Numbered from the stretch's first letter, positions 7,868 through 41,166 are shown. The stretch is DNA of 64,000 nucleotides from Escherichia phage vB-Eco-KMB38 (OR525701.1); one strand, 5' to 3'. A program made the numbers and translations. Notes: generated by a model not told the origin, from the sequence alone.

Positions 7868-7896
7868 AAAAAAAAAAAGGAACTCCGAAGAGTTCC
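7868..7896 (-). terminator. intrinsic terminator upstream of gene 47
   Basis: ggaactc-ttcg-gagttcc hairpin followed by an 11-nt U run on the minus-strand transcript. Confidence 0.65.
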
Positions 7897-11275: not shown

Positions 11276-11524
11276 TCAGAGGTTGATCGATACAACGCGT
11301 TTGATAAAATTCACTTCACTTACTGAAAGGTCTTTAAGACCGATTGATTCTAAACGCTGAGTAAGCGTCAACATCGGGATATAATCCCAATGAGTTTTAT
11401 TTGCTTGATAAGTACGAACGCCATTAGCAATTTCAACATGCAAATCGGAAATGGTAATGAATACCGGATGCTCGTCATTAACTTTAAGGGTTAGAACAAC
11501 CTTCTTTGAATCTAAACTAATCAT
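11276..11524 (-). CDS. hypothetical protein
   Basis: 82 aa ORF. Confidence 0.5.
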   Translation of the reverse strand: MISLDSKKVVLTLKVNDEHPVFITISDLHVEIANGVRTYQANKTHWDYIPMLTLTQRLESIGLKDLSVSEVNFIKRVVSINL

Positions 11525-11703
11525 GGTTTAATTTCCTTCGCAATTGAACAGAAGATACCACGGTCACAAAGCATTTCACCAATTTCTGGATATTTGATTG
11601 AACGGTACCAAACATCCAGGCTTGAAACTCTGGTTATCTGTATGGCATTACCATTGACAGAATAGTACTGGTCAACCTTAATTTCTTTATCTTCAATTGT
11701 CAT
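11521..11703 (-). CDS. hypothetical protein
   Basis: Internal Met (MTIEDKEIKV); upstream part of the long ORF reads through a promoter-like region. Confidence 0.4.
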   Translation of the reverse strand: MTIEDKEIKVDQYYSVNGNAIQITRVSSLDVWYRSIKYPEIGEMLCDRGIFCSIAKEIKP

Positions 11704-11869
11704 TTTATTTTCCTCTATAGTAGATGGTTTAATCTTAACACATTTATTGAGGATGTAAACTGTTTTATGAAAATATTTTTTGATTTGAGAGGGGCACAAG
11801 GAGATAGTGAAGTGAAGATTCCAATGGATTATATTAGAAATGAGATAAAGAAGACCAGGCGGCACCTGG

Positions 11870-12193
11870 TCAATCTTCTATGATATCAGAGTCATATCCT
11901 AATGAAATCAAGGACTTTTTAAACTCTGCAATATTCTTTTGTTTCTTATCATTTAAAAATATGACAGGATAACGAATATTAAGTGAAGTGAATCCTGCAC
12001 GTTTAGCAAGAGATACGATTAAAGGACGGTCATATTCAATCTTACCATTATTAGTGAGGACTTTATAAAATGTATAAGGAGCATTGAGCTCCTTTAAAAG
12101 TTTTGTAACAGTATAACATCCTGGACAACGTCCAACTTCTTCAGGGATGCCATAAATTTCAATCTTGTTCTTTAAGTTCGAGTTTTGTTCCAC
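11870..12193 (-). CDS. nrdH: glutaredoxin/NrdH-like redoxin (thioredoxin fold, CPGC)
   Basis: KIEIYGIPEEVGRCPGCYTVTKLL thioredoxin-fold start with CxxC; probable GTG start at 12191-12193; adjacent to nrdG/nrdD. Confidence 0.55.
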   Translation of the reverse strand: MEQNSNLKNKIEIYGIPEEVGRCPGCYTVTKLLKELNAPYTFYKVLTNNGKIEYDRPLIVSLAKRAGFTSLNIRYPVIFLNDKKQKNIAEFKKSLISLGYDSDIIED

Positions 12194-12476
12194 GAGAAAT
12201 AATTCCTTGGTAAGCCCAATAAGGAGGATTAACAGAATCCTCACCCGAGTTTTCTTCAGGAAAATAAACCTGGATAACGAAGCCGGATTCATCAAATGTA
12301 AAATAAACTGTAGGCAGTTCACCTAACAATTCGACACGAGCATTAATTTCTTCGAGATCTCGTTCACGTCCAGCCCAAAAACTAGGATTTAGATTACATT
12401 CGTAAAAATAATAGTCATTACCGAACATATCAAACCCCTTCCAACTCTCTACCACGTACCGCTCAAAACTAATCAT
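12159..12476 (-). CDS. hypothetical protein
   Basis: 105 aa ORF. Confidence 0.5.
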   Translation of the reverse strand: MISFERYVVESWKGFDMFGNDYYFYECNLNPSFWAGRERDLEEINARVELLGELPTVYFTFDESGFVIQVYFPEENSGEDSVNPPYWAYQGIISRGTKLELKEQD

Positions 12477-13275: not shown

Positions 13276-15089
13276 TGGTGTTTAACCCTATGCATGATTT
13301 CTTTATTTTTGCCGAGATTAAATCCGCGTTCGTTCGGATTTCCCAAATAACCACAAGTTCTTCTTATTGTGTTCATCTTTTTAGGGTCAGTTTCTCCGCA
13401 AACTGAACAAACAAATCCGTTTTCAGTAGGAGTCATTTCATGGGTACTTCCACATGTAAAACATTTATCTACTGGCATATTAACACCAAAATAATCTAAA
13501 TGTTGTGCGGCATAATCCCATACAGCCTCAAGACCTTTTAAGTTATTTTTCATATCAGGAAGTTCAACATAAGAAATGTGACCACCGGTCGCAATGAAAT
13601 GATATGGCGCTTCACGAGAAATCTTTTCAAACGGAGTAATATTTTCTTCTACTGAAACATGGAAACTATTAGTGTACCAGCCTTTATCAGTAACATCTTT
13701 TACACTTCCATATTTTTCTGTATCAAGTTTACAGAAACGATAACACAAGTTTTCAGCAGGAGTAGAATACAAGCTAAAAGCAAAACCGGTTCTTTCAGTC
13801 CACTGTTTAAGATGAGCATTCATTTTAGTTAAAATTTCTTGTCCAATATCACGACCGACAAGAATATTCAATTCGTGAATACCAATGTATCCTAGGGACA
13901 CTGAACTTCTACCGTTTTTAAATAACTCAATTATATCGTCATCAGGTTTAAGACGAACCCCGAATGCACCTTCTTGGTAAAGAATAGGAGCAACAGTCGC
14001 TTTAACTCCTTTTAAGGAACTAATTCTACACATCAAAGCTTCAAAACACAAATCCATTCGTTCATTGAACAATTCGGCAAATTTCTGTTCATTGAATTGT
14101 GTTCCAATATAAGAATCTAACGCAATGCGAGGAAGATTCAGTGTTACAACACCAAGATTATTGCGTCCATCAAGAATTTCATTACCAGTCGAATCTTTCC
14201 ATACACTCAAGAAACTACGGCAACCCATTGGAGAAACTGGAACTGAAGAACCAGTAATAGCTTTATTATTCTTAACCGAAATAATGTCAGGATACATTCT
14301 TTTGCTTGCACATTCTAACGCAAGTTGTTTAATATCATAGTTCGGATCATCTTTATAAAGATTAACACCTTCTTCAACGAACATAACAAGCTTAGGGAAA
14401 ATAGGAGTTATTCCATCACGACCAAGGCCTTTAATGCGGTTTTTAAGAATTGCTTTCTGAATCATTCGTTCAGTCCAGTCGGTTCCTGTACCAAATGTAA
14501 TTGTTACAAAAGGAGTCTGTCCGTTTGAACTAAAGAGAGTATTTACTTCATATTCATAAGCTTGGAATGCATCGTATACGTCTTTTTCTGTTTTAGATTG
14601 AGCATAATTCAACGCATCAGCGATTTGCCATTTTTCTGCATCTTCAACATGTTTAGCGTATGTGCGTTTAACATAAGGAGAAAGAACTTTATCGACATTC
14701 GCAAATGTAGTTCCGCCATATTGGTGTGAAGCAACTTGTGCGGTAATTTGTGCCATAATTGCAGTAGCAACGCCAATAGATTTAGGCGTTTCAATTTGAG
14801 CATTGCCTAATTTAAATCCATTCTCAAGCATCCCCTTTAAATCGACTAAACAGCAATTAGTAAATGGAAGAGCAGGAGAATAATCAATATCATGCATGTG
14901 AATGATTCCGCTTTCATGCGCATTCATAATAAAAGACGGGACCATATTTTTGGCAATGTGCTTAGACACAATACCAGCCATAAGGTCCCGTTGAGTTGGA
15001 AAAACACGAGAATCTTTATTAGCATTCTCGTTTAAAAGGTCTTTATTAGTTTTATGAATTAATCCTTCAATTTCTTTTTCAATTTTCAT
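13272..15089 (-). CDS. nrdD: anaerobic ribonucleoside-triphosphate reductase NrdD, uninterrupted
   Basis: 605 aa continuous ORF, C-terminal Cys cluster CFTCGSTHEMTPTENGFVCSVCGE and glycyl-radical region RRTCGYLG; no intron. Confidence 0.9.
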   Translation of the reverse strand: MKIEKEIEGLIHKTNKDLLNENANKDSRVFPTQRDLMAGIVSKHIAKNMVPSFIMNAHESGIIHMHDIDYSPALPFTNCCLVDLKGMLENGFKLGNAQIETPKSIGVATAIMAQITAQVASHQYGGTTFANVDKVLSPYVKRTYAKHVEDAEKWQIADALNYAQSKTEKDVYDAFQAYEYEVNTLFSSNGQTPFVTITFGTGTDWTERMIQKAILKNRIKGLGRDGITPIFPKLVMFVEEGVNLYKDDPNYDIKQLALECASKRMYPDIISVKNNKAITGSSVPVSPMGCRSFLSVWKDSTGNEILDGRNNLGVVTLNLPRIALDSYIGTQFNEQKFAELFNERMDLCFEALMCRISSLKGVKATVAPILYQEGAFGVRLKPDDDIIELFKNGRSSVSLGYIGIHELNILVGRDIGQEILTKMNAHLKQWTERTGFAFSLYSTPAENLCYRFCKLDTEKYGSVKDVTDKGWYTNSFHVSVEENITPFEKISREAPYHFIATGGHISYVELPDMKNNLKGLEAVWDYAAQHLDYFGVNMPVDKCFTCGSTHEMTPTENGFVCSVCGETDPKKMNTIRRTCGYLGNPNERGFNLGKNKEIMHRVKHQ

Positions 15090-16683: not shown

Positions 16684-16980
16684 TTATTGTTCTACACATG
16701 CACAGGAAACTTCGAAGTCAGGACCACCGTATTCCCAGTGGTATTCACCAACAGGAATCCAGTCACCATGCTCGTTTTCTTCATAGTCCTCAGGCTCAAG
16801 GCCAACGAATCGCCATTGGACACCGATGATTCTATTACCCATCATTACTCGAAATTCGCCCCATGGATTATCAATAGCATACTGAATATCGTTCTTAGCA
16901 CGAGAGCACATTTCTTGATATAACAAAGTTTCTAATTCGTCCTGGTCATAAGGGCCTGGGAAAGTTAAATCGATATTCAT
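16684..16980 (-). CDS. hypothetical acidic protein
   Basis: 98 aa ORF. Confidence 0.5.
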   Translation of the reverse strand: MNIDLTFPGPYDQDELETLLYQEMCSRAKNDIQYAIDNPWGEFRVMMGNRIIGVQWRFVGLEPEDYEENEHGDWIPVGEYHWEYGGPDFEVSCACVEQ

Positions 16981-17240
16981 TTAAAATATTCTCGCAGTTG
17001 GTCAAATCCACCAATGTGACTTCCGTCAGGAGCAAACACTTGAGGCATCGTCAATCCAACATGTGTTTCACGTCCAAGCTTAGCCAGAAGCTCAGCAATT
17101 TTTTCTTCATCGAATACACCTTTTTCCGGCATAACATTAATGAATTCGAATGGCTGTTTCTTAACAGTCAGCAATCGTTTCGCGTTATCACAATAAATGC
17201 ATTTATGAATAGTAGAGTCATACCCGTACACTTTAAACAT
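16977..17240 (-). CDS. nrdC: thioredoxin/glutaredoxin NrdC
   Basis: MFKVYGYDSTIHKCIYCDNAKRLLTVKKQPFEF...GGFDQLREYFK, near-identical to T4 NrdC. Confidence 0.85.
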   Translation of the reverse strand: MFKVYGYDSTIHKCIYCDNAKRLLTVKKQPFEFINVMPEKGVFDEEKIAELLAKLGRETHVGLTMPQVFAPDGSHIGGFDQLREYFK

Positions 17241-17646
17241 TATTTTTCCTTTCATCGATTAAATATGCAATGCCAAATACAATACATGTAATAAAACCTG
17301 TGATACAGATAGAAACCAACAACACTGTACCAAAGAACCAAATCAAGTTATCTTTAGTAGTTTGTTTGATATCCATCTCACGAATTTCTATAGCTATCGT
17401 ATCACCTTTATTCAGAAGCGTATAAAACGACGGTGATACACGCCTGTCAAAAACTCGTCCTTGTTCATCTTTATAAACTGCAATAAATTCTAATTTAGAA
17501 TATTTTCCTGTAGATTGTCCTGAGATTAATTCCACTACCTCCACAGGAATTACTTTAGTTTCCATGTAAGTATTCTGGCTGTTCCAAATGAATGGAATAA
17601 TAGCAAAAACTAAAGCTGCGATAAAACAACGAAGGCTATATCTCAT
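17233..17646 (-). CDS. hypothetical membrane protein
   Basis: 137 aa, N- and C-terminal hydrophobic helices. Confidence 0.5.
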   Translation of the reverse strand: MRYSLRCFIAALVFAIIPFIWNSQNTYMETKVIPVEVVELISGQSTGKYSKLEFIAVYKDEQGRVFDRRVSPSFYTLLNKGDTIAIEIREMDIKQTTKDNLIWFFGTVLLVSICITGFITCIVFGIAYLIDERKNNV

Positions 17647-17951
17647 TATAATGTTCTCTCAAATTTGTGGAAGCATTTACGGCATTTCAATTTCAAGTTA
17701 TCAGTGGTCCAGTTAACCAGTTGGACTTGGATAGTTCCACATTCCGGGCATGGATGTTTTGCTGCCGATTTGGCAGCATTTTCACGTCGTTCAACCATTT
17801 TCATTATTTCGTTCCATGCCGGAGGAACGAACTCTTCTTCACTATGAATTTTATCTCGTTGAACAAATTCAATCTTTGAACTATCGTCAATAAACTTAAC
17901 CAAGCCATGATTAGTGCTCATATCAATATCCTCTAAAAGACGTAGTTTCAT
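17646..17951 (-). CDS. hypothetical zinc-ribbon protein
   Basis: 101 aa with CPEC...CRKC pair. Confidence 0.5.
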   Translation of the reverse strand: MKLRLLEDIDMSTNHGLVKFIDDSSKIEFVQRDKIHSEEEFVPPAWNEIMKMVERRENAAKSAAKHPCPECGTIQVQLVNWTTDNLKLKCRKCFHKFERTL

Positions 17952-18895
17952 TATAAAACCTCAATGGCATTTCGTAAACCGTCCGCTTTCGCATTCAGAG
18001 CTTTTAACGATTTAGTTTGTTCTGCAATCTGGGCTTCGACTTCTTTCAGACGAGATTTGAGGTACTCACGTTCTTCAGCCATGATATCAACCTTTTCTGC
18101 TTTAGGTTCTTTAATAGGCTTAAACACATTAGGGTTCTTCAGTTTAATTTTAATTCGAGAACTGAATAACATTGAACCGTTATCTTCGGTTTCGTCGAAC
18201 ATTTCAACAACATCCATAGTCTGTAACATCATACGAAGTTTATAAGACAGCGAACGAACGGTTTTGTTGTGCTTATTAATTTCTTCGGCTTTCATTGTAC
18301 CGAGATTACGTGAGTAATAATAAGGAACCTGGATATCAATTGATAATGATGCGTTACCATTACCTGTTGGTTTGAATACTGCAGTAACCCAATCTTTAAC
18401 ATGAACTTTATTTGTACGTCCATCGCCACCTGTGAATAATTTACGAGAATGTTTAAAAAGCATATTCACTTGGTTATTGAATTCACAAGCAAATTTATCA
18501 GCAAATTTAGTTTCAGGAATGGTAGATAACCAATCAGCTAAATGAGTCTTTTTAACATCATTAACAATAGTGAATTCAACCAAATCGGTTTTAGATGTCA
18601 CAGATTTAATAAAGCTCGGCTTCATAAAGTTTTTAATGTTATCGCGAGCTACAGTAGAAGATAATAAACGAGAACGTTTGAACCATTGAAGCAGTGTCCC
18701 TAATGAATGAGAATACGCATTTTGAGTATCTTTACAGATATGATTTTCTTGGCCTGTGTATGTACCAAAATCGCGAAGAATACCACTTACTACATCTCGG
18801 TGTGGAACATCAAATCCTAATGAACCAGAAGCACGTTGGGCATGAACGTTAGCGATAAGACCTGCAAAGTATTCAATGTAATGTGAACGTGTCAT
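17951..18895 (-). CDS. hypothetical protein, paralog family member 1 (C-terminal coiled coil)
   Basis: 314 aa ORF with own upstream promoter; shares local similarity with the next ORF. Confidence 0.6.
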   Translation of the reverse strand: MTRSHYIEYFAGLIANVHAQRASGSLGFDVPHRDVVSGILRDFGTYTGQENHICKDTQNAYSHSLGTLLQWFKRSRLLSSTVARDNIKNFMKPSFIKSVTSKTDLVEFTIVNDVKKTHLADWLSTIPETKFADKFACEFNNQVNMLFKHSRKLFTGGDGRTNKVHVKDWVTAVFKPTGNGNASLSIDIQVPYYYSRNLGTMKAEEINKHNKTVRSLSYKLRMMLQTMDVVEMFDETEDNGSMLFSSRIKIKLKNPNVFKPIKEPKAEKVDIMAEEREYLKSRLKEVEAQIAEQTKSLKALNAKADGLRNAIEVL

Positions 18896-18924
18896 AATAT
18901 TTTCCTCTCGTTAAGATAGATTCA

Positions 18925-18953
18925 TTATACTCCAACCATCCTTGGTTGTAAAC
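18925..18953 (-). promoter_or_regulatory. sigma70-type early promoter
   Basis: Minus strand GTTTAC-aaccaaggatggttggag-TATAAT. Confidence 0.5.
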
Positions 18954-18957
18954 TGAT

Positions 18958-19917
18958 TTATGATTTTAATGCATTCATTGCGTTAAAAAGTTTAGAGTAC
19001 TGCAACTGGAGATTCGTTACAACACTTTGAGCATCACGAAGCTTAGCTTGTGCTTTGTCAAGTTCAACAGACAGTTGGTCTATAGTGGCCTTGATTTGAT
19101 TGTAATGGTAATCTTCGGCCGGAAGAAGGTCATTAGAAACATTTAGTTTTACTGCAGACAGTTTGCACACATTTGGCAAACCTTTAAACATTGATTTACC
19201 CGAAGTAGAATAAGCACTTAGGACTTCGGCCTGTTCAATTGGGGTTCCAGTAAGCGATGCTTCAAACAATGCATTTTCCTTTTTAAGATTTTGATAGTAT
19301 TCAGAGTCTTTGTGCCACCATGGCGCAGGAACCTTTTTACCAATAGATACACGAGCCTGGATAGCGATATTGCCCTTATTCTTGATAGGGTCGATAATAT
19401 TAAGCTCACGAGAATAAATTGCTTTAATCTGGTGGATATTATCACCTAAAACTTCCAGTGCTTGGTGGAATACACGAGCAACATTATCATTCTTAGGTTT
19501 ATATGTAAGAGTGAACTCATTCTCACTGATAACCATGATTTCTAACTTATCGTAAGTATATTTCAAATGTTTCATGTTAATTGCTTGAGGACGAATACGA
19601 GAAGCAATGGCCATCAGATTGTTAAGGTTATTTCGGAACTGTTTAGCAAAATATTGTCCGCAGCCGCCGATACAAAAATTACGAAGTTTCTGTTTGGCTA
19701 ATAAACGGCTGAACTCACCATTTTTAATGAACTCTTTAACGGGTGTGTTAGTAACGCATTCAAATTGAGTAAACATACGAGAATTAATCCCATAATATGA
19801 ACAGATTTCCTCAATCTCTTCAGGAGTCTTTACAGGCATACGGATAGGATTAGGTCCTGGAGTATATGCGTTCGAGGTAAATTCTTTGATAAGTTCTCTA
19901 CGTGTAATAAAAGCCAT
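18958..19917 (-). CDS. hypothetical protein, paralog family member 2 (C-terminal coiled coil)
   Basis: 319 aa ORF with own promoter. Confidence 0.6.
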   Translation of the reverse strand: MAFITRRELIKEFTSNAYTPGPNPIRMPVKTPEEIEEICSYYGINSRMFTQFECVTNTPVKEFIKNGEFSRLLAKQKLRNFCIGGCGQYFAKQFRNNLNNLMAIASRIRPQAINMKHLKYTYDKLEIMVISENEFTLTYKPKNDNVARVFHQALEVLGDNIHQIKAIYSRELNIIDPIKNKGNIAIQARVSIGKKVPAPWWHKDSEYYQNLKKENALFEASLTGTPIEQAEVLSAYSTSGKSMFKGLPNVCKLSAVKLNVSNDLLPAEDYHYNQIKATIDQLSVELDKAQAKLRDAQSVVTNLQLQYSKLFNAMNALKS

Positions 19918-19944
19918 TTTATATTCCTCATGTTGAAAAATTTA

Positions 19945-19971
19945 TTATACTCCAACCGTCCTTGGTTGTAC
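19945..19971 (-). promoter_or_regulatory. sigma70-type early promoter (near copy of 18925 element)
   Basis: Minus strand GTACA-aaccaaggacggttggag-TATAAT. Confidence 0.45.
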
Positions 19972-19972
19972 A

Positions 19973-20968
19973 TCATTCCTTAAGAAGTTTTACTACTTGA
20001 ATAAGATTAGCTCGTTCTGTTTTATTTTTACCGTTTAAGCCCGCTAATCGTGAGATTTCATCATCAGTCTGTTGAATAGTTACATTAAGTTCGTTAATCA
20101 AAGCTTCAAAGTATTTGATTTGCTCAGCATGTTTTGATTCAAATTTCTGAACCGGAATAACGTCTTGGTTTAGTTCATCAATAAGGTCTTTAAGAGCATC
20201 TTCTTGGTTGATATCATATTCAACTTCTTTTATTTCTTCAACGAGCTCGTCTTTATATCTAACGTCTTTTAGTCCTGGTGCTGGTCCTGAAATCTCTTCT
20301 TTAAGAGTGCAAACATATCCAATACGATATCCAGTGCCGTCTCGCTTGATATCAACTTCGTCGATAAATCCACAATGTTTGAGACCAGAGCCGATTAGGT
20401 CAAAATATCCTTGACGACGTCCTTCAAACGTTACACGAACTACTAAGACAGTTTTGCCTGCAACCTTTTGAAGCTCACATTTATAAAAGTCAGTTGAACC
20501 TGAATAACGTGGATGAGTTTTAAAGTTCATCTGACGATATATGCCCATTTGTAAACGTGCTGTTACGGCCATAAAACGTGTTTGGTTCTCGTTAAGATGA
20601 GCAACAATCCATTTCAAAGGCATTTTACACTGTTCACGACCGAACAAATCAGTACGTCCTAGATTACGCAGGATGTTGTTAGAGTTAATCATCGACAGAA
20701 CGTTAAGTTTATTCAGCGCGCTGAAGATTCCATCAGCCATTGATTTTCCGTAGCCTTTACACGCTTTAATAAGCGCTCGCGGTAGATTAGTATAGATTTC
20801 AGACGGCATATGAAAATCAAATTTACTAACCAGTAATTGATGAACTTGGATAGCAATTCGTTCATAATTAAGTGCTCTGCGATCATTATGGTCTTTAAAC
20901 CACACTTTAATCTGTGAAGCACATAAACCGTTAATTTCATGTTTTACCGCATCAGATGTAATGCTCAT
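19973..20968 (-). CDS. hypothetical protein, probable paralog family member 3 (C-terminal coiled coil)
   Basis: 331 aa ORF with own promoter. Confidence 0.6.
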   Translation of the reverse strand: MSITSDAVKHEINGLCASQIKVWFKDHNDRRALNYERIAIQVHQLLVSKFDFHMPSEIYTNLPRALIKACKGYGKSMADGIFSALNKLNVLSMINSNNILRNLGRTDLFGREQCKMPLKWIVAHLNENQTRFMAVTARLQMGIYRQMNFKTHPRYSGSTDFYKCELQKVAGKTVLVVRVTFEGRRQGYFDLIGSGLKHCGFIDEVDIKRDGTGYRIGYVCTLKEEISGPAPGLKDVRYKDELVEEIKEVEYDINQEDALKDLIDELNQDVIPVQKFESKHAEQIKYFEALINELNVTIQQTDDEISRLAGLNGKNKTERANLIQVVKLLKE

Positions 20969-21003
20969 AACTATTTCCTCAGATTGAATTGGAACTCAAA
21001 ACC

Positions 21004-21027
21004 ATTATAACCCGTCCTTGGGTAAAG
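21004..21027 (-). promoter_or_regulatory. sigma70-type early promoter
   Basis: Minus strand CTTTAC-ccaaggacgggt-TATAAT, same spacer element with covarying flanks. Confidence 0.4.
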
Positions 21028-21030
21028 CGT

Positions 21031-21558
21031 TTATGCGTGAACCGACTTTAAACGTTCTTCAAATTTCCGAAGAGTACTAATACGTTCTGCTTTCTGTTTT
21101 GTATAGTTTGCAATACGTTCTGAAGTGAGAGCGTATCGTTCGTTTACTGTTTCTTTCATGAAGTCAGGGATTTCACGAGAAGCTTTAATTTCATCAAACT
21201 TATCGAGTACTGCCTGGTCTTCAGCGATTAAATTTTCGTACATCTCGATATCTTTCTTGATAAACTCGATATCTTCCTGGGTTACTTTGGATAAACGAGA
21301 TGCTTTATCCTTTTTGTACTGCTCGTTAGTTTCACGAGACCAGAATAATGTACGTTTTTTGTTAGTGTTTTTGTAGACTTCCACAATTCCAACCGAATCG
21401 ATGATAACAATCCAATTCCAGCGAGATTTGAAAATCTGACCTCCGTCCACGGTAATCTCGTTACCATAAGCAACGTCATTAAAGAACTTGCTTTGTGCTT
21501 CAGATTTAAATTTACCGTCGTTATAATTTACCAGGTTGAAAATATCTTTAGCGTTCAT
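21031..21558 (-). CDS. hypothetical protein
   Basis: 175 aa ORF with helical C-terminus. Confidence 0.55.
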   Translation of the reverse strand: MNAKDIFNLVNYNDGKFKSEAQSKFFNDVAYGNEITVDGGQIFKSRWNWIVIIDSVGIVEVYKNTNKKRTLFWSRETNEQYKKDKASRLSKVTQEDIEFIKKDIEMYENLIAEDQAVLDKFDEIKASREIPDFMKETVNERYALTSERIANYTKQKAERISTLRKFEERLKSVHA

Positions 21559-21585: not shown

Positions 21586-21614
21586 ATAATAACATAATCA
21601 TAGACCTTGTAAAC
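21586..21614 (-). promoter_or_regulatory. sigma70-type early promoter with inverted repeat
   Basis: GTTTAC-N17-TATTAT followed by agacctatcaac; arms aggtctat/atagacct flank the -10. Confidence 0.5.
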
Positions 21615-23061: not shown

Positions 23062-23090
23062 ATAATAACATATCCTAAAAGCATGTACAC
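23062..23090 (-). promoter_or_regulatory. sigma70-type early promoter
   Basis: GTGTAC-N17-TATTAT-agacctatc on the minus strand upstream of the ATPase gene. Confidence 0.45.
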
Positions 23091-23137
23091 TACTTTTTAA
23101 AAATATTTTGACCCCCTAAAGGGCCCGAAGGCCCTTA

Positions 23138-29144: not shown

Positions 29145-29683
29145 TCTTTTATTTCCAGTAGTTTATTTGATTTAAGGTAATTAGCCTTTTCTAGGACTTC
29201 AGAAGCATATTTACTTCCAGCACTTGTCTTCCATCCCGCATTGTATGAGGATATAGCTTTTCTTATATCCCCGTTATGTATATTTAACCAATAAGAAAAT
29301 TCGATATAAGCCCATCTGGTTGAATTAGACCGCTTAGATAGCATTTTCTTAATTTGGGCATCAGTCATATTATAACCAAGCTGGTTAATTCTTGCCCTCA
29401 TTGTTGGTAGATAGTTTTGGAACATTCCATACGCATGGTGACCTTTCTTATCTTTAAGATTAATACCAGCAGATGATTCCTGCCATAGTATTGCGGCCAT
29501 TATGTATCCAAGTCCTTTCTTATGCATATTTTCATGCGTTTTAAATTTTCCATCCTTAGAAAACTGCTCCCCAAACTGATAAGCATAATTCAAGTTATCG
29601 AGTTGGACATTACTAAAAGTATGCTCGGAGCTATGTGCTGATAATGAAAGAGCAAATAGACCAGCGAGTAGTGCTTTTCTCAT
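29141..29683 (-). CDS. periplasmic lytic transglycosylase-like protein (SLT domain)
   Basis: Signal peptide then WQESSAGINL...YGMFQ, the SLT catalytic E-S...GxxQ pattern. Confidence 0.6.
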   Translation of the reverse strand: MRKALLAGLFALSLSAHSSEHTFSNVQLDNLNYAYQFGEQFSKDGKFKTHENMHKKGLGYIMAAILWQESSAGINLKDKKGHHAYGMFQNYLPTMRARINQLGYNMTDAQIKKMLSKRSNSTRWAYIEFSYWLNIHNGDIRKAISSYNAGWKTSAGSKYASEVLEKANYLKSNKLLEIKE

Positions 29684-40943: not shown

Positions 40944-41108
40944 TTAGATGTAAATTATTTCAACGTCACCTTTAGCGGCTTTATAACCTTCAGCCCAAGA
41001 TACAACAGAGTTTTTATCTGAGGATTCAAATTCAGGCATTGGACTTTCACCGATATTCACACAGTATGTTTCTTCATTTTCATCGAACCAAATAATTAAA
41101 GTAGTCAT
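40944..41108 (-). CDS. small hypothetical protein (54 aa)
   Basis: ATG at 41106-41108 after gaggag SD and a promoter; below track cutoff. Confidence 0.35.
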   Translation of the reverse strand: MTTLIIWFDENEETYCVNIGESPMPEFESSDKNSVVSWAEGYKAAKGDVEIIYI

Positions 41109-41138: not shown

Positions 41139-41166
41139 ATAGTATCACCATCCTTGGTGCTTGTAC
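41139..41166 (-). promoter_or_regulatory. sigma70-type early promoter
   Basis: GTACAA-gcaccaaggatggtga-TACTAT-agacttatcaac. Confidence 0.4.

Follow-up and report, generated by a model that had tools for sequence, protein, structure and literature searches.

A 64,000-nucleotide stretch of the Escherichia phage vB-Eco-KMB38 genome (OR525701.1; hereafter the window) carries a tandem array of four open reading frames (ORFs) at positions 17951-21558. The array raises the question of whether its three large genes are divergent paralogs that were duplicated together with their promoters, as the original prediction had claimed, and what such a block contributes to the phage. The four ORFs exist at the predicted coordinates, all of them on the minus strand, with lengths of 314, 319, 331 and 175 amino acids (aa) and a good Shine-Dalgarno sequence before each. 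In terms of sequence homology none of them is an orphan; all are T4-family accessory genes, namely nrdC.3, nrdC.5 and nrdC.6 (here members 1, 2 and 3) followed by nrdC.8. The overall best explanation, to which we assign a probability of roughly 55%, is that the array is the Mosigvirus nrdC.3/.5/.6 block, partly derived from one family, encoding early counter-defence or host-range proteins and employing a reused hairpin-containing promoter cassette. The initial observation was confirmed in part, and its interpretation proved right in part. New here are a deep relationship, graded as probable, of the anti-Dsr1 family (nrdC.5) with nrdC.3/nrdC.4, a tail motif common to these proteins, and a covarying hairpin-in-spacer cassette at the junctions of gene turnover.

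Gene identities and family relationships

Sequence comparison showed 100% identity of the region with Escherichia phage PTK (MW512264), a Mosigvirus, and identities of 96-99% with many RB69-like phages. Comparison by BLASTP with the T4 reference region identified member 1 (17951..18895, minus strand) as the ortholog of T4 nrdC.3, with 57% identity over the full length (expectation value E 5e-123). Its residues 1-314 align with positions 1-333 of the 334 in the phrog_1435 profile (E 5.5e-102; PF26897), which T4 nrdC.3 and T4 nrdC.4 both match over their full length. Member 2 (18958..19917, minus strand) is a diverged ortholog of T4 nrdC.5, only 25% identical in sequence (E 2e-10), yet it fits the DUF7235 model (PF23882; phrog_2351) practically end to end, residues 15-318 covering model positions 1-307 with 411.9 bits at a cut-off of 30 (E 2.4e-123). 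T4 nrdC.5 itself scores 420.6 bits (E 5e-126) on this model, and the RB69 copy of member 2 is annotated as NrdC.5. Member 3 (19973..20968, minus strand) is a diverged ortholog of T4 nrdC.6 (29% identity, E 1e-16) and matches the phrog_2257 profile (PF26899) over its full length with an E of 2.4e-125, compared with 6e-126 for T4 nrdC.6. Each of the three members thus has an ortholog among the catalogued T4 genes, and one of these T4 genes has been characterised; this corresponds to half of what the original prediction had named as its refutation.

Pairwise BLASTP among the three window proteins revealed no significant similarity for any pair. We compared family alignments comprising the window proteins, database homologs and the loci of T4, RB10, T2, ACG-C40, VR7, TH44, ESCO47 and Bp7. 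The profiles of nrdC.3 and nrdC.4 matched with hhalign probabilities of 96-97.5% (E 1e-9 to 1e-12), whether or not the C-terminal tails were included, and reciprocal hidden Markov model (HMM) matches reached E values of 1e-14 to 1e-8. On the basis of these profiles the paralogy of nrdC.3 and nrdC.4 appears robust; it follows that T4 holds tandem paralogs of which this phage, being devoid of nrdC.4, retains one. The merged nrdC.3 plus nrdC.4 profile matched nrdC.5 with 77%, 91% and 94.5% in separate runs, the last with an E of 7.5e-8 over 207 collinear columns from residue 1. After removal of the tails, the match remained at 94.3% (E 1e-7), again with collinearity from residue 1 onwards across about 200 columns, while controls with reversed sequences and with the neighbouring families nrdC.8, nrdC.10 and nrdC.11 gave at most 0.3%. 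In addition, phrog_26858 links nrdC.4 with nrdC.5. Members 1 and 2 are therefore probably very distant homologs, connected via T4 nrdC.4; we grade this homology as probable rather than proven, because the signal requires the most diverse profiles. The short motif pairs on which the original prediction had based their similarity (VTAVFKPTGNGNA/FTLTYKPKNDNVA and YYSRNL/IYSREL) did not support it, as they are not aligned with each other in the best profile alignment; one of the pairs is aligned in a weaker one.

A direct nrdC.3-nrdC.5 link of 98.5% in hhalign was rejected as an artefact of protein P0033, which had been present in both alignments and was removed. P0033 is a natural chimera, in which the N-terminus of nrdC.5 is joined to the C-terminus of nrdC.3.

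The paralogy of member 3 with members 1 and 2 is unproven; of the proposed trio, two genes are probable distant relatives. Member 3 resembles the others in size, in predicted secondary-structure order and in its C-terminal tail motif. The merged nrdC.3/.4/.5 profile matched nrdC.6 with 55% (E 1.2e-4, collinear, 208 columns), the controls having E values of at least 0.18, and among the other window ORFs of at least 200 aa only member 3 stood out against this profile (E 0.0016, runner-up 0.056). Each of the three pairwise alignments places two motifs, LSRxxAxxxLRNF and FxxxFRxNxxxLLAxAxR, in an identical register. The order of secondary-structure elements predicted by AlphaFold2 (AF2) for members 1 and 3 scored 150 vs 87±21 for shuffled elements, a value reached in 0 of 500 shuffles. 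ORF 4 (nrdC.8) was examined as a fourth paralog and rejected, with an hhalign probability of 0.1% against the merged family. The best cross-genus match of the member 1 model in Foldseek was gp088 of Serratia phage PS2 (370 aa, positions 11364-12476 of locus L014), located two genes from nrdC and thus in a corresponding genomic slot; HMM comparison linked it significantly to none of the families.

A common trait of all four families (nrdC.3, nrdC.4, nrdC.5 and nrdC.6) is that the very C-terminus carries the motif L-x-x-A-[LI]-x-x-L-[LI]-K. Among nrdC.5 and nrdC.6 orthologs conservation is highest in the C-terminal 55 residues, with 44-71% identity vs 16-28% within the first 100 residues. The coiled-coil tails predicted earlier for all three members are supported as far as their helical nature is concerned: AF2 places a helix at residues 273-313 of member 1 (predicted local distance difference test, pLDDT, 61-79) and broken helices within residues 257-330 of member 3. 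Heptad periodicity was strong in member 2 only, as judged by a crude score, and Pfam coiled-coil matches were weak. In phage ACG-C40 a natural deletion product has kept the tail alone, and the distribution of the tail suggests that it persists as an independent module. Judged from sequence, the combination of a conserved tail with a variable head suggests a common handle equipped with target-specific heads. We also observed nrdC.6 or nrdC.4 tails without the remaining protein, on unrelated or truncated N-termini, in P0061 (129 aa), P0062 (88 aa) and Salmonella phage Manna (H210).

A hairpin-in-spacer cassette and gene turnover

T4-type early promoters were defined by a GTTTAC-like -35 box and a TATAAT box separated by 17±1 nucleotides (nt). 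Sites of this type precede member 1, member 2 and nrdC.8. The member 1 promoter (GTTTACAACCAAGGATGGTTGGAGTATAAT, 18924..18953, minus strand; GTTTAC, 17 nt, TATAAT) matches the consensus at 11 of 12 positions in a sigma70 scan, and its spacer contains the hairpin CAACCA-AGGA-TGGTTG (18933-18948), followed by GGAG; the hairpin is present in the minimum-free-energy fold. The member 2 promoter (ATGTACAACCAAGGACGGTTGGAGTATAAT, 19944..19973, minus strand; ATGTAC, 17 nt, TATAAT) is identical to it at 28 of 30 positions and carries the hairpin CAACC(A)-AGGA-(C)GGTTG (19953-19968). Before member 3 lies a promoter-like site (CGCTTTACCCAAGGACGGGTTATAAT, 21004..21029, minus strand; cGCTTTA, 13 nt, TATAAT) with the hairpin ACCC(A)-AGGA-(C)GGGT (21010-21023). 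The claim that each gene is driven by its own sigma70-type promoter is accordingly valid for members 1 and 2 and fails for this third site, where TTTACC stands 11 nt from TATAAT and which the sigma70 scan did not call. T4 middle promoters, which depend on MotA, consist of an (a/t)(a/t)(a/t)TGCTTtA box, 11-13 nt and TAnnnT. Reading aaaCGCTTTA, 13 nt, TATAAT, the site before member 3 deviates at the first box position (C, not T), and we hypothesize from this sequence pattern that it might be a MotA-dependent middle promoter.

The published RB69 prediction lists contain neither an early nor a middle promoter for the member 3 site, while coordinate mapping retrieves counterparts for member 1 (Pe:51019), member 2 (Pe:52042) and nrdC.8 (Pe:53683). 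Orthologs of the member 3 site lie downstream of nrdC.8 in T4, VR7 and Bp7, the T4 copy being the nrdC.7 promoter. In T4, nrdC.7 lies between nrdC.8 and nrdC.6; here, an nrdC.7-like membrane protein (window 17233-17646, minus strand, 41% identity to T4 nrdC.7) is found between nrdC.2 and nrdC. Owing to this difference in position, T4's nrdC.7 promoter stands directly before nrdC.6 in this phage. Neither nrdC.5 nor nrdC.6 has its own promoter in T4. A terminator scan found no terminators within the block.

The spacer element reported for the three sites is real, the 30-mer being expected by chance 0 times. It is a small hairpin with the invariant core CA-AGGA-TG, whose outer pairs vary between sites and phages. 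In Mosigviruses the stem is CAACCA/TGGTTG before nrdC.3 and nrdC.5 and ACCCA/TGGGT before nrdC.6. Downstream of nrdC.8 in T4, RB10, T2, ACG-C40, VR7, TH44 and Bp7 it is TTATACCA/TGGTATAA. T4 carries GCCACA/TGTGGT before nrdC.4 and AGCCA/TGGCT before nrdC.3, and the nrdC.4 copies of VR7 and Bp7 are preceded by CTTCCA/TGGAGG and CATCC/GGATG, respectively. A fourth copy in the window, CACCA-AGGA-TGGTG (41146..41159, minus strand), resides in the early promoter of an unrelated 54-aa ORF (40944-41108). Altogether the cassette occupies matching sites in T4, RB10, T2, VR7, TH44, Bp7 and Mosigviruses, covering the genera Tequatrovirus, Mosigvirus, Gaprivervirus and Dhakavirus. The whole T4 genome contains only four perfect AGGA-loop hairpins with a stem of at least 5 base pairs (bp), all four in early-strand promoter spacers, the fourth of them before rIIA.1 in a promoter differing from that of nrdC.4 by one base in 30.

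Across 13 distinct hairpin variants, pairing is seen in 85.9% of the cells vs 61.7% of those in shuffles; the covariation score amounts to 0.564 vs 0.139 in shuffles and at most 0.12 in slid registers; 0 of 500 shuffles reach either value, although these pairing statistics are biased in favour of pairing because the instances were gathered with a stem requirement. The hairpin matches no Rfam family, and a literature search retrieved no description of such a hairpin-in-spacer cassette in searchable papers. In a wider scan of viral contigs for hairpin promoters with a loose pattern, 118 of the 120 matches were attributable to chance. The hairpin was also considered as an intrinsic terminator and rejected, since it has no U-tract and was not called by the terminator scan. 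Where the stem ends 3-5 nt before the -10 box, the filler is always GGAG, the target motif of the RegB endoribonuclease (window 18924-18932 and 19944-19952; about 7885-7895 of the T4 locus L001; about 9800 of the VR7 locus L006), so that read-through transcripts would carry the hairpin and then GGAG. Apart from these copies, an AGGA-loop hairpin with a 9-bp stem (AGTTTTCTA-agga-TGGAAAATT) is found at about 29545-29566 of the window (minus strand) in apparent coding sequence outside a promoter context; it is kept in ESCO47 as well (L008, about 125-146).

The gene content of the block varies across T-even phages, as the copy-number comparison proposed with the original prediction brought out. 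T4 and RB10 hold nrdC.3,.4,.5 and.6; PTK, and with it the block described here, holds nrdC.3,.5 and.6; VR7, TH44 and Bp7 hold nrdC.4,.5 and.6; ESCO47 holds nrdC.3 and.6; and ACG-C40 has a remnant of an nrdC.5::nrdC.3 fusion together with nrdC.6. In the latter (L003 7805-8213), an in-frame or near-frame natural deletion connects the nrdC.5 5' end with the nrdC.3 3' end, nrdC.4 being gone. Member 2 was found in 132 phage records, and Mosigvirus-type member 1 or member 3 in about 150. The T2 record AP018813 shows nrdC.6 and nrdC.4 each broken into two ORFs (L005 4963-5853 and 7001-7940), representing pseudogenes or sequencing errors.

Cassettes flank nrdC.3,.4,.5,.6 and.7, and the nrdC.6-to-nrdC.3 junction of ESCO47, where nrdC.5 is absent, is itself a hybrid cassette: its upstream context and left arm correspond to the member 2 promoter of PTK and its downstream leader to the member 1 promoter, leaving one stem pair mismatched. 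This fits the pattern expected of recombination between cassettes, as proposed for promoter-early stem-loops (PeSLs). In PeSLs a stem-loop upstream of the -35 box acts as a terminator (PMC4122927). The cassette described here resembles them (Arbiol et al. 2010; Comeau et al. 2014) in comprising repeated sigma70-type early units with a stem-loop, in its occurrence within hyperplastic regions with flanking variable ORFs, and in being implicated in the modular gain and loss of genes. It differs in that the hairpin is placed inside the -35/-10 spacer, is weak, lacks a U-tract and has a conserved AGGA loop. Given the position and terminator activity that define the PeSL stem-loop, the hairpin was rejected as a canonical PeSL.

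Functional reading and competing explanations

The functional precedent for this block originates from T4. An evolved T4 clone with deletions lost the infection of ECOR17 owing to the sirtuin defence Dsr1 (Srikant, Guegler & Laub, eLife 2022, PMC9391042), and T4 nrdC.5 supplied in trans allowed T4 to infect Dsr1-carrying cells again (PMC9391042). In the searchable literature there was no mechanistic follow-up on nrdC.5 and nothing on nrdC.3, nrdC.4 or nrdC.6. Since T4 nrdC.5 neutralises Dsr1, a counter-defence or host-range role is the most likely one for the block. Four points together suggest a counter-defence/host-range set: the precedent of nrdC.5, the early expression of the genes, their dispensability as seen from presence/absence variation in nature, and fast-evolving heads on conserved tails. 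The earlier placement of the array in a region of anti-defence cargo agrees with the documented role of one family member, T4 nrdC.5 against Dsr1 (PMC9391042); members 1 and 3 may have such a role. What the evidence establishes is the family-level tie of member 2 to the anti-Dsr1 protein; the remaining functional reading we infer from it. Member 2 shares with T4 NrdC.5 the fit to the DUF7235 model, the slot between nrdC.6 and nrdC.4/.3, the status of an early gene and the tail motif, and may have kept the anti-Dsr1 activity. It differs by its low overall identity (23% for the head and 44% for the tail) and by an early promoter of its own, which T4 nrdC.5 lacks. Likewise, member 1 corresponds to one half of the T4 nrdC.3/nrdC.4 pair, with a hairpin promoter upstream in both phages, while nrdC.4 is missing here and, conversely, Gaprivervirus and Dhakavirus hold nrdC.4 without nrdC.3.

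We propose that transcription of the block would run leftward from multiple internal promoters, uninterrupted by terminators, and that nrdC.3, nrdC.4 and nrdC.5 would constitute one old, fast-diverging family. The fast-evolving N-terminal and middle part, the head, may recognise the host target, and the conserved helical tail ending in the motif given above may let the proteins associate with themselves or dock to a shared partner. The hairpin cassette is older than the split of the four T-even genera and is reused before unrelated genes; as its possible function, it could provide short homology where genes of the block are deleted or inserted.

A number of observations weigh against this proposal. 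The link of nrdC.5 to nrdC.3/nrdC.4 depends on profile diversity, falling to 1-40% with subsets and to about 1% with Mosigvirus-only profiles. Member 3 reached at most 21% in pairwise hhalign against the other families (at most 10% without tails), and its signal with the merged profile drops to 4.7% once the tail is removed. An exhaustive HMMER search with member 3 in 1.84 billion representative proteins yielded six matches, none of them cross-family: all were nrdC.6-type proteins or short proteins having its tail only, so that the family is narrow. AF2 gave models of low quality for members 1 and 3 (mean pLDDT 53 and 49, from shallow alignments), for which reason no fold was assigned or compared and Foldseek recovered mostly each protein's own family; the match lists of the two in BFVD had no significant match in common. 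No catalytic or binding motif was recognised, in agreement with the original prediction as to catalytic motifs, and the proteins had no match in PDB, NCBIfam or PADLOC. At 25% identity it is not to be assumed that member 2 shares the target of T4 nrdC.5. With respect to the hairpin, the bias of the pairing statistics belongs here as well, together with its thermodynamic weakness (z-scores of -1.1 to +0.3). Several of these points are what would be expected if the array consisted of three unrelated accessory genes with heterogeneous functions, which share a generic helical or coiled-coil tail, a similar size and the same promoter type, the profile signals arising from amphipathic helices. The lack of pairwise BLASTP signal and the assignment to three separate PHROGs and Pfam families would also agree with this. 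The collinear match between nrdC.3 plus nrdC.4 and nrdC.5, which persists without tails and far exceeds the controls, speaks against it, as do the three-way register consistency and the robust nrdC.3/nrdC.4 paralogy, and we consider unrelated genes rather unlikely.

The scenario of the original prediction, a tandem duplication of promoter-plus-gene units with subsequent divergence that left the common spacer as a relic, appears very unlikely to us as an account of the block. The true paralogs nrdC.3 and nrdC.4 each have a hairpin promoter in T4 and members 1 and 2 have nearly identical promoters here, so that such a duplication is possible for nrdC.3 and nrdC.4. However, the element is found at orthologous sites in four genera and before the unrelated T4 rIIA.1, T4 nrdC.7 and the 54-aa ORF; T4 nrdC.5 and nrdC.6 are without a promoter of their own, and the member 3 site is orthologous to a promoter of another gene. 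Its occurrence before unrelated genes and at gain/loss junctions points to a reused promoter cassette and constitutes no proof of unit duplication. Moreover, the stems covary though the proteins have diverged past BLAST detection, which argues for selection on the element, gene conversion or recombination between cassettes over passive inheritance. Another alternative assigns host takeover to the block or to one of its genes, with the factor for rapid host mRNA destabilisation from the tk-nrdC.2 interval as the candidate. The T4 deletion Δtk2 (tk to nrdC.2, 11.3 kilobases, spanning nrdC.3-nrdC.11) abolishes phage-induced host-mRNA destabilisation, the responsible gene not having been identified there (PMC3014915), and the genes are early expressed. 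As Δtk2 spans about 30 genes, no single gene has more than a low prior; a direct anti-Dsr1 phenotype is known for nrdC.5, and nrdC.3,.4 and.5 are freely lost in natural phages, fitting host-specific accessory roles. We regard a host-takeover function as scarcely probable. Finally, an extended version of the counter-defence proposal appears doubtful: herein nrdC.3,.4,.5 and.6 would form one modular family of early counter-defence proteins with hypervariable heads, one per immune effector (Dsr1 in the case of nrdC.5), on a conserved C-terminal helical handle, diversified and reshuffled via the CA-AGGA-TG cassette acting as promoter or RNA element and as recombination hotspot, which would amount to a cassette-exchange system for the anti-defence genes of T-even phages.

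Returning to the counter-defence/host-range reading of the nrdC.3/.5/.6 block, the locus resembles known anti-defence islands (the anti-toxin-antitoxin genes dmd-tifA-adfA of T4, the internal-protein locus of T-even phages and anti-CRISPR loci) in holding non-essential, early, fast-evolving genes whose presence or absence sets host range. Those islands mostly encode small unrelated proteins, whereas the proteins here are about 300-340 aa in size and belong to at least three families apparently of common ancestry and sharing a tail. If nrdC.3, nrdC.4 and perhaps nrdC.6 are related to NrdC.5, the cluster offers a ready-made set of candidates that can be tested as inhibitors of further defence systems. 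If the reading is true, the presence and absence of these genes across hundreds of T-even phages could help to explain host range, with relevance to the choice of therapeutic phages. The layout of conserved tail and variable head hints at where specificity resides, and the hairpin cassette offers a concrete sequence for testing accessory-gene exchange in T-even phages.

Neighbouring genes and further promoter features

The placement of the array in the nrdC-tk region was correct, the block being located between nrdC (16977-17255) and tk. ORF 4 (21031..21558, minus strand) is, with 175 aa, the ortholog of T4 nrdC.8 (83% identity). Further neighbours are nrdC.9, nrdC.10 (AAA ATPase), nrdC.11 (nucleotidyltransferase), nrdC.2, the relocated nrdC.7-like membrane protein and nrdC.

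As had been anticipated for the fourth ORF, an early promoter was called before nrdC.8 (21586..21613, minus strand; TTTACA, 16 nt, TATTAT with TG). It represents another cassette type, which recurs at the nrdC.10 promoter (window 23062-23089, minus strand) and in T4 (L001, about 11900-11945 and about 13340-13400), and contains ATGTTATTATAGACCTATC in PTK and TGGTACTATACAACTATCAACT in T4. The nrdC.8 and nrdC.10 copies of this cassette are more alike within a phage than orthologous copies are across phages, suggesting concerted promoter evolution. The sole convincing intrinsic terminator within 17.6-23.2 kb of the window is a hairpin at 23110-23136, between nrdC.11 and nrdC.10, which is strong, bidirectional and GC-rich and has a UUCG/CGAA loop. 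At the opposite end of the array, the last codons of member 1 (…GLRNAIEVL*; 17950-17978, minus strand) encode a perfect early-promoter consensus (GTTTAC, 17 nt, TATAAT), whose -10 box overlaps the start codon of nrdC.2; the T4-type sequence at this position is without a -10 box.

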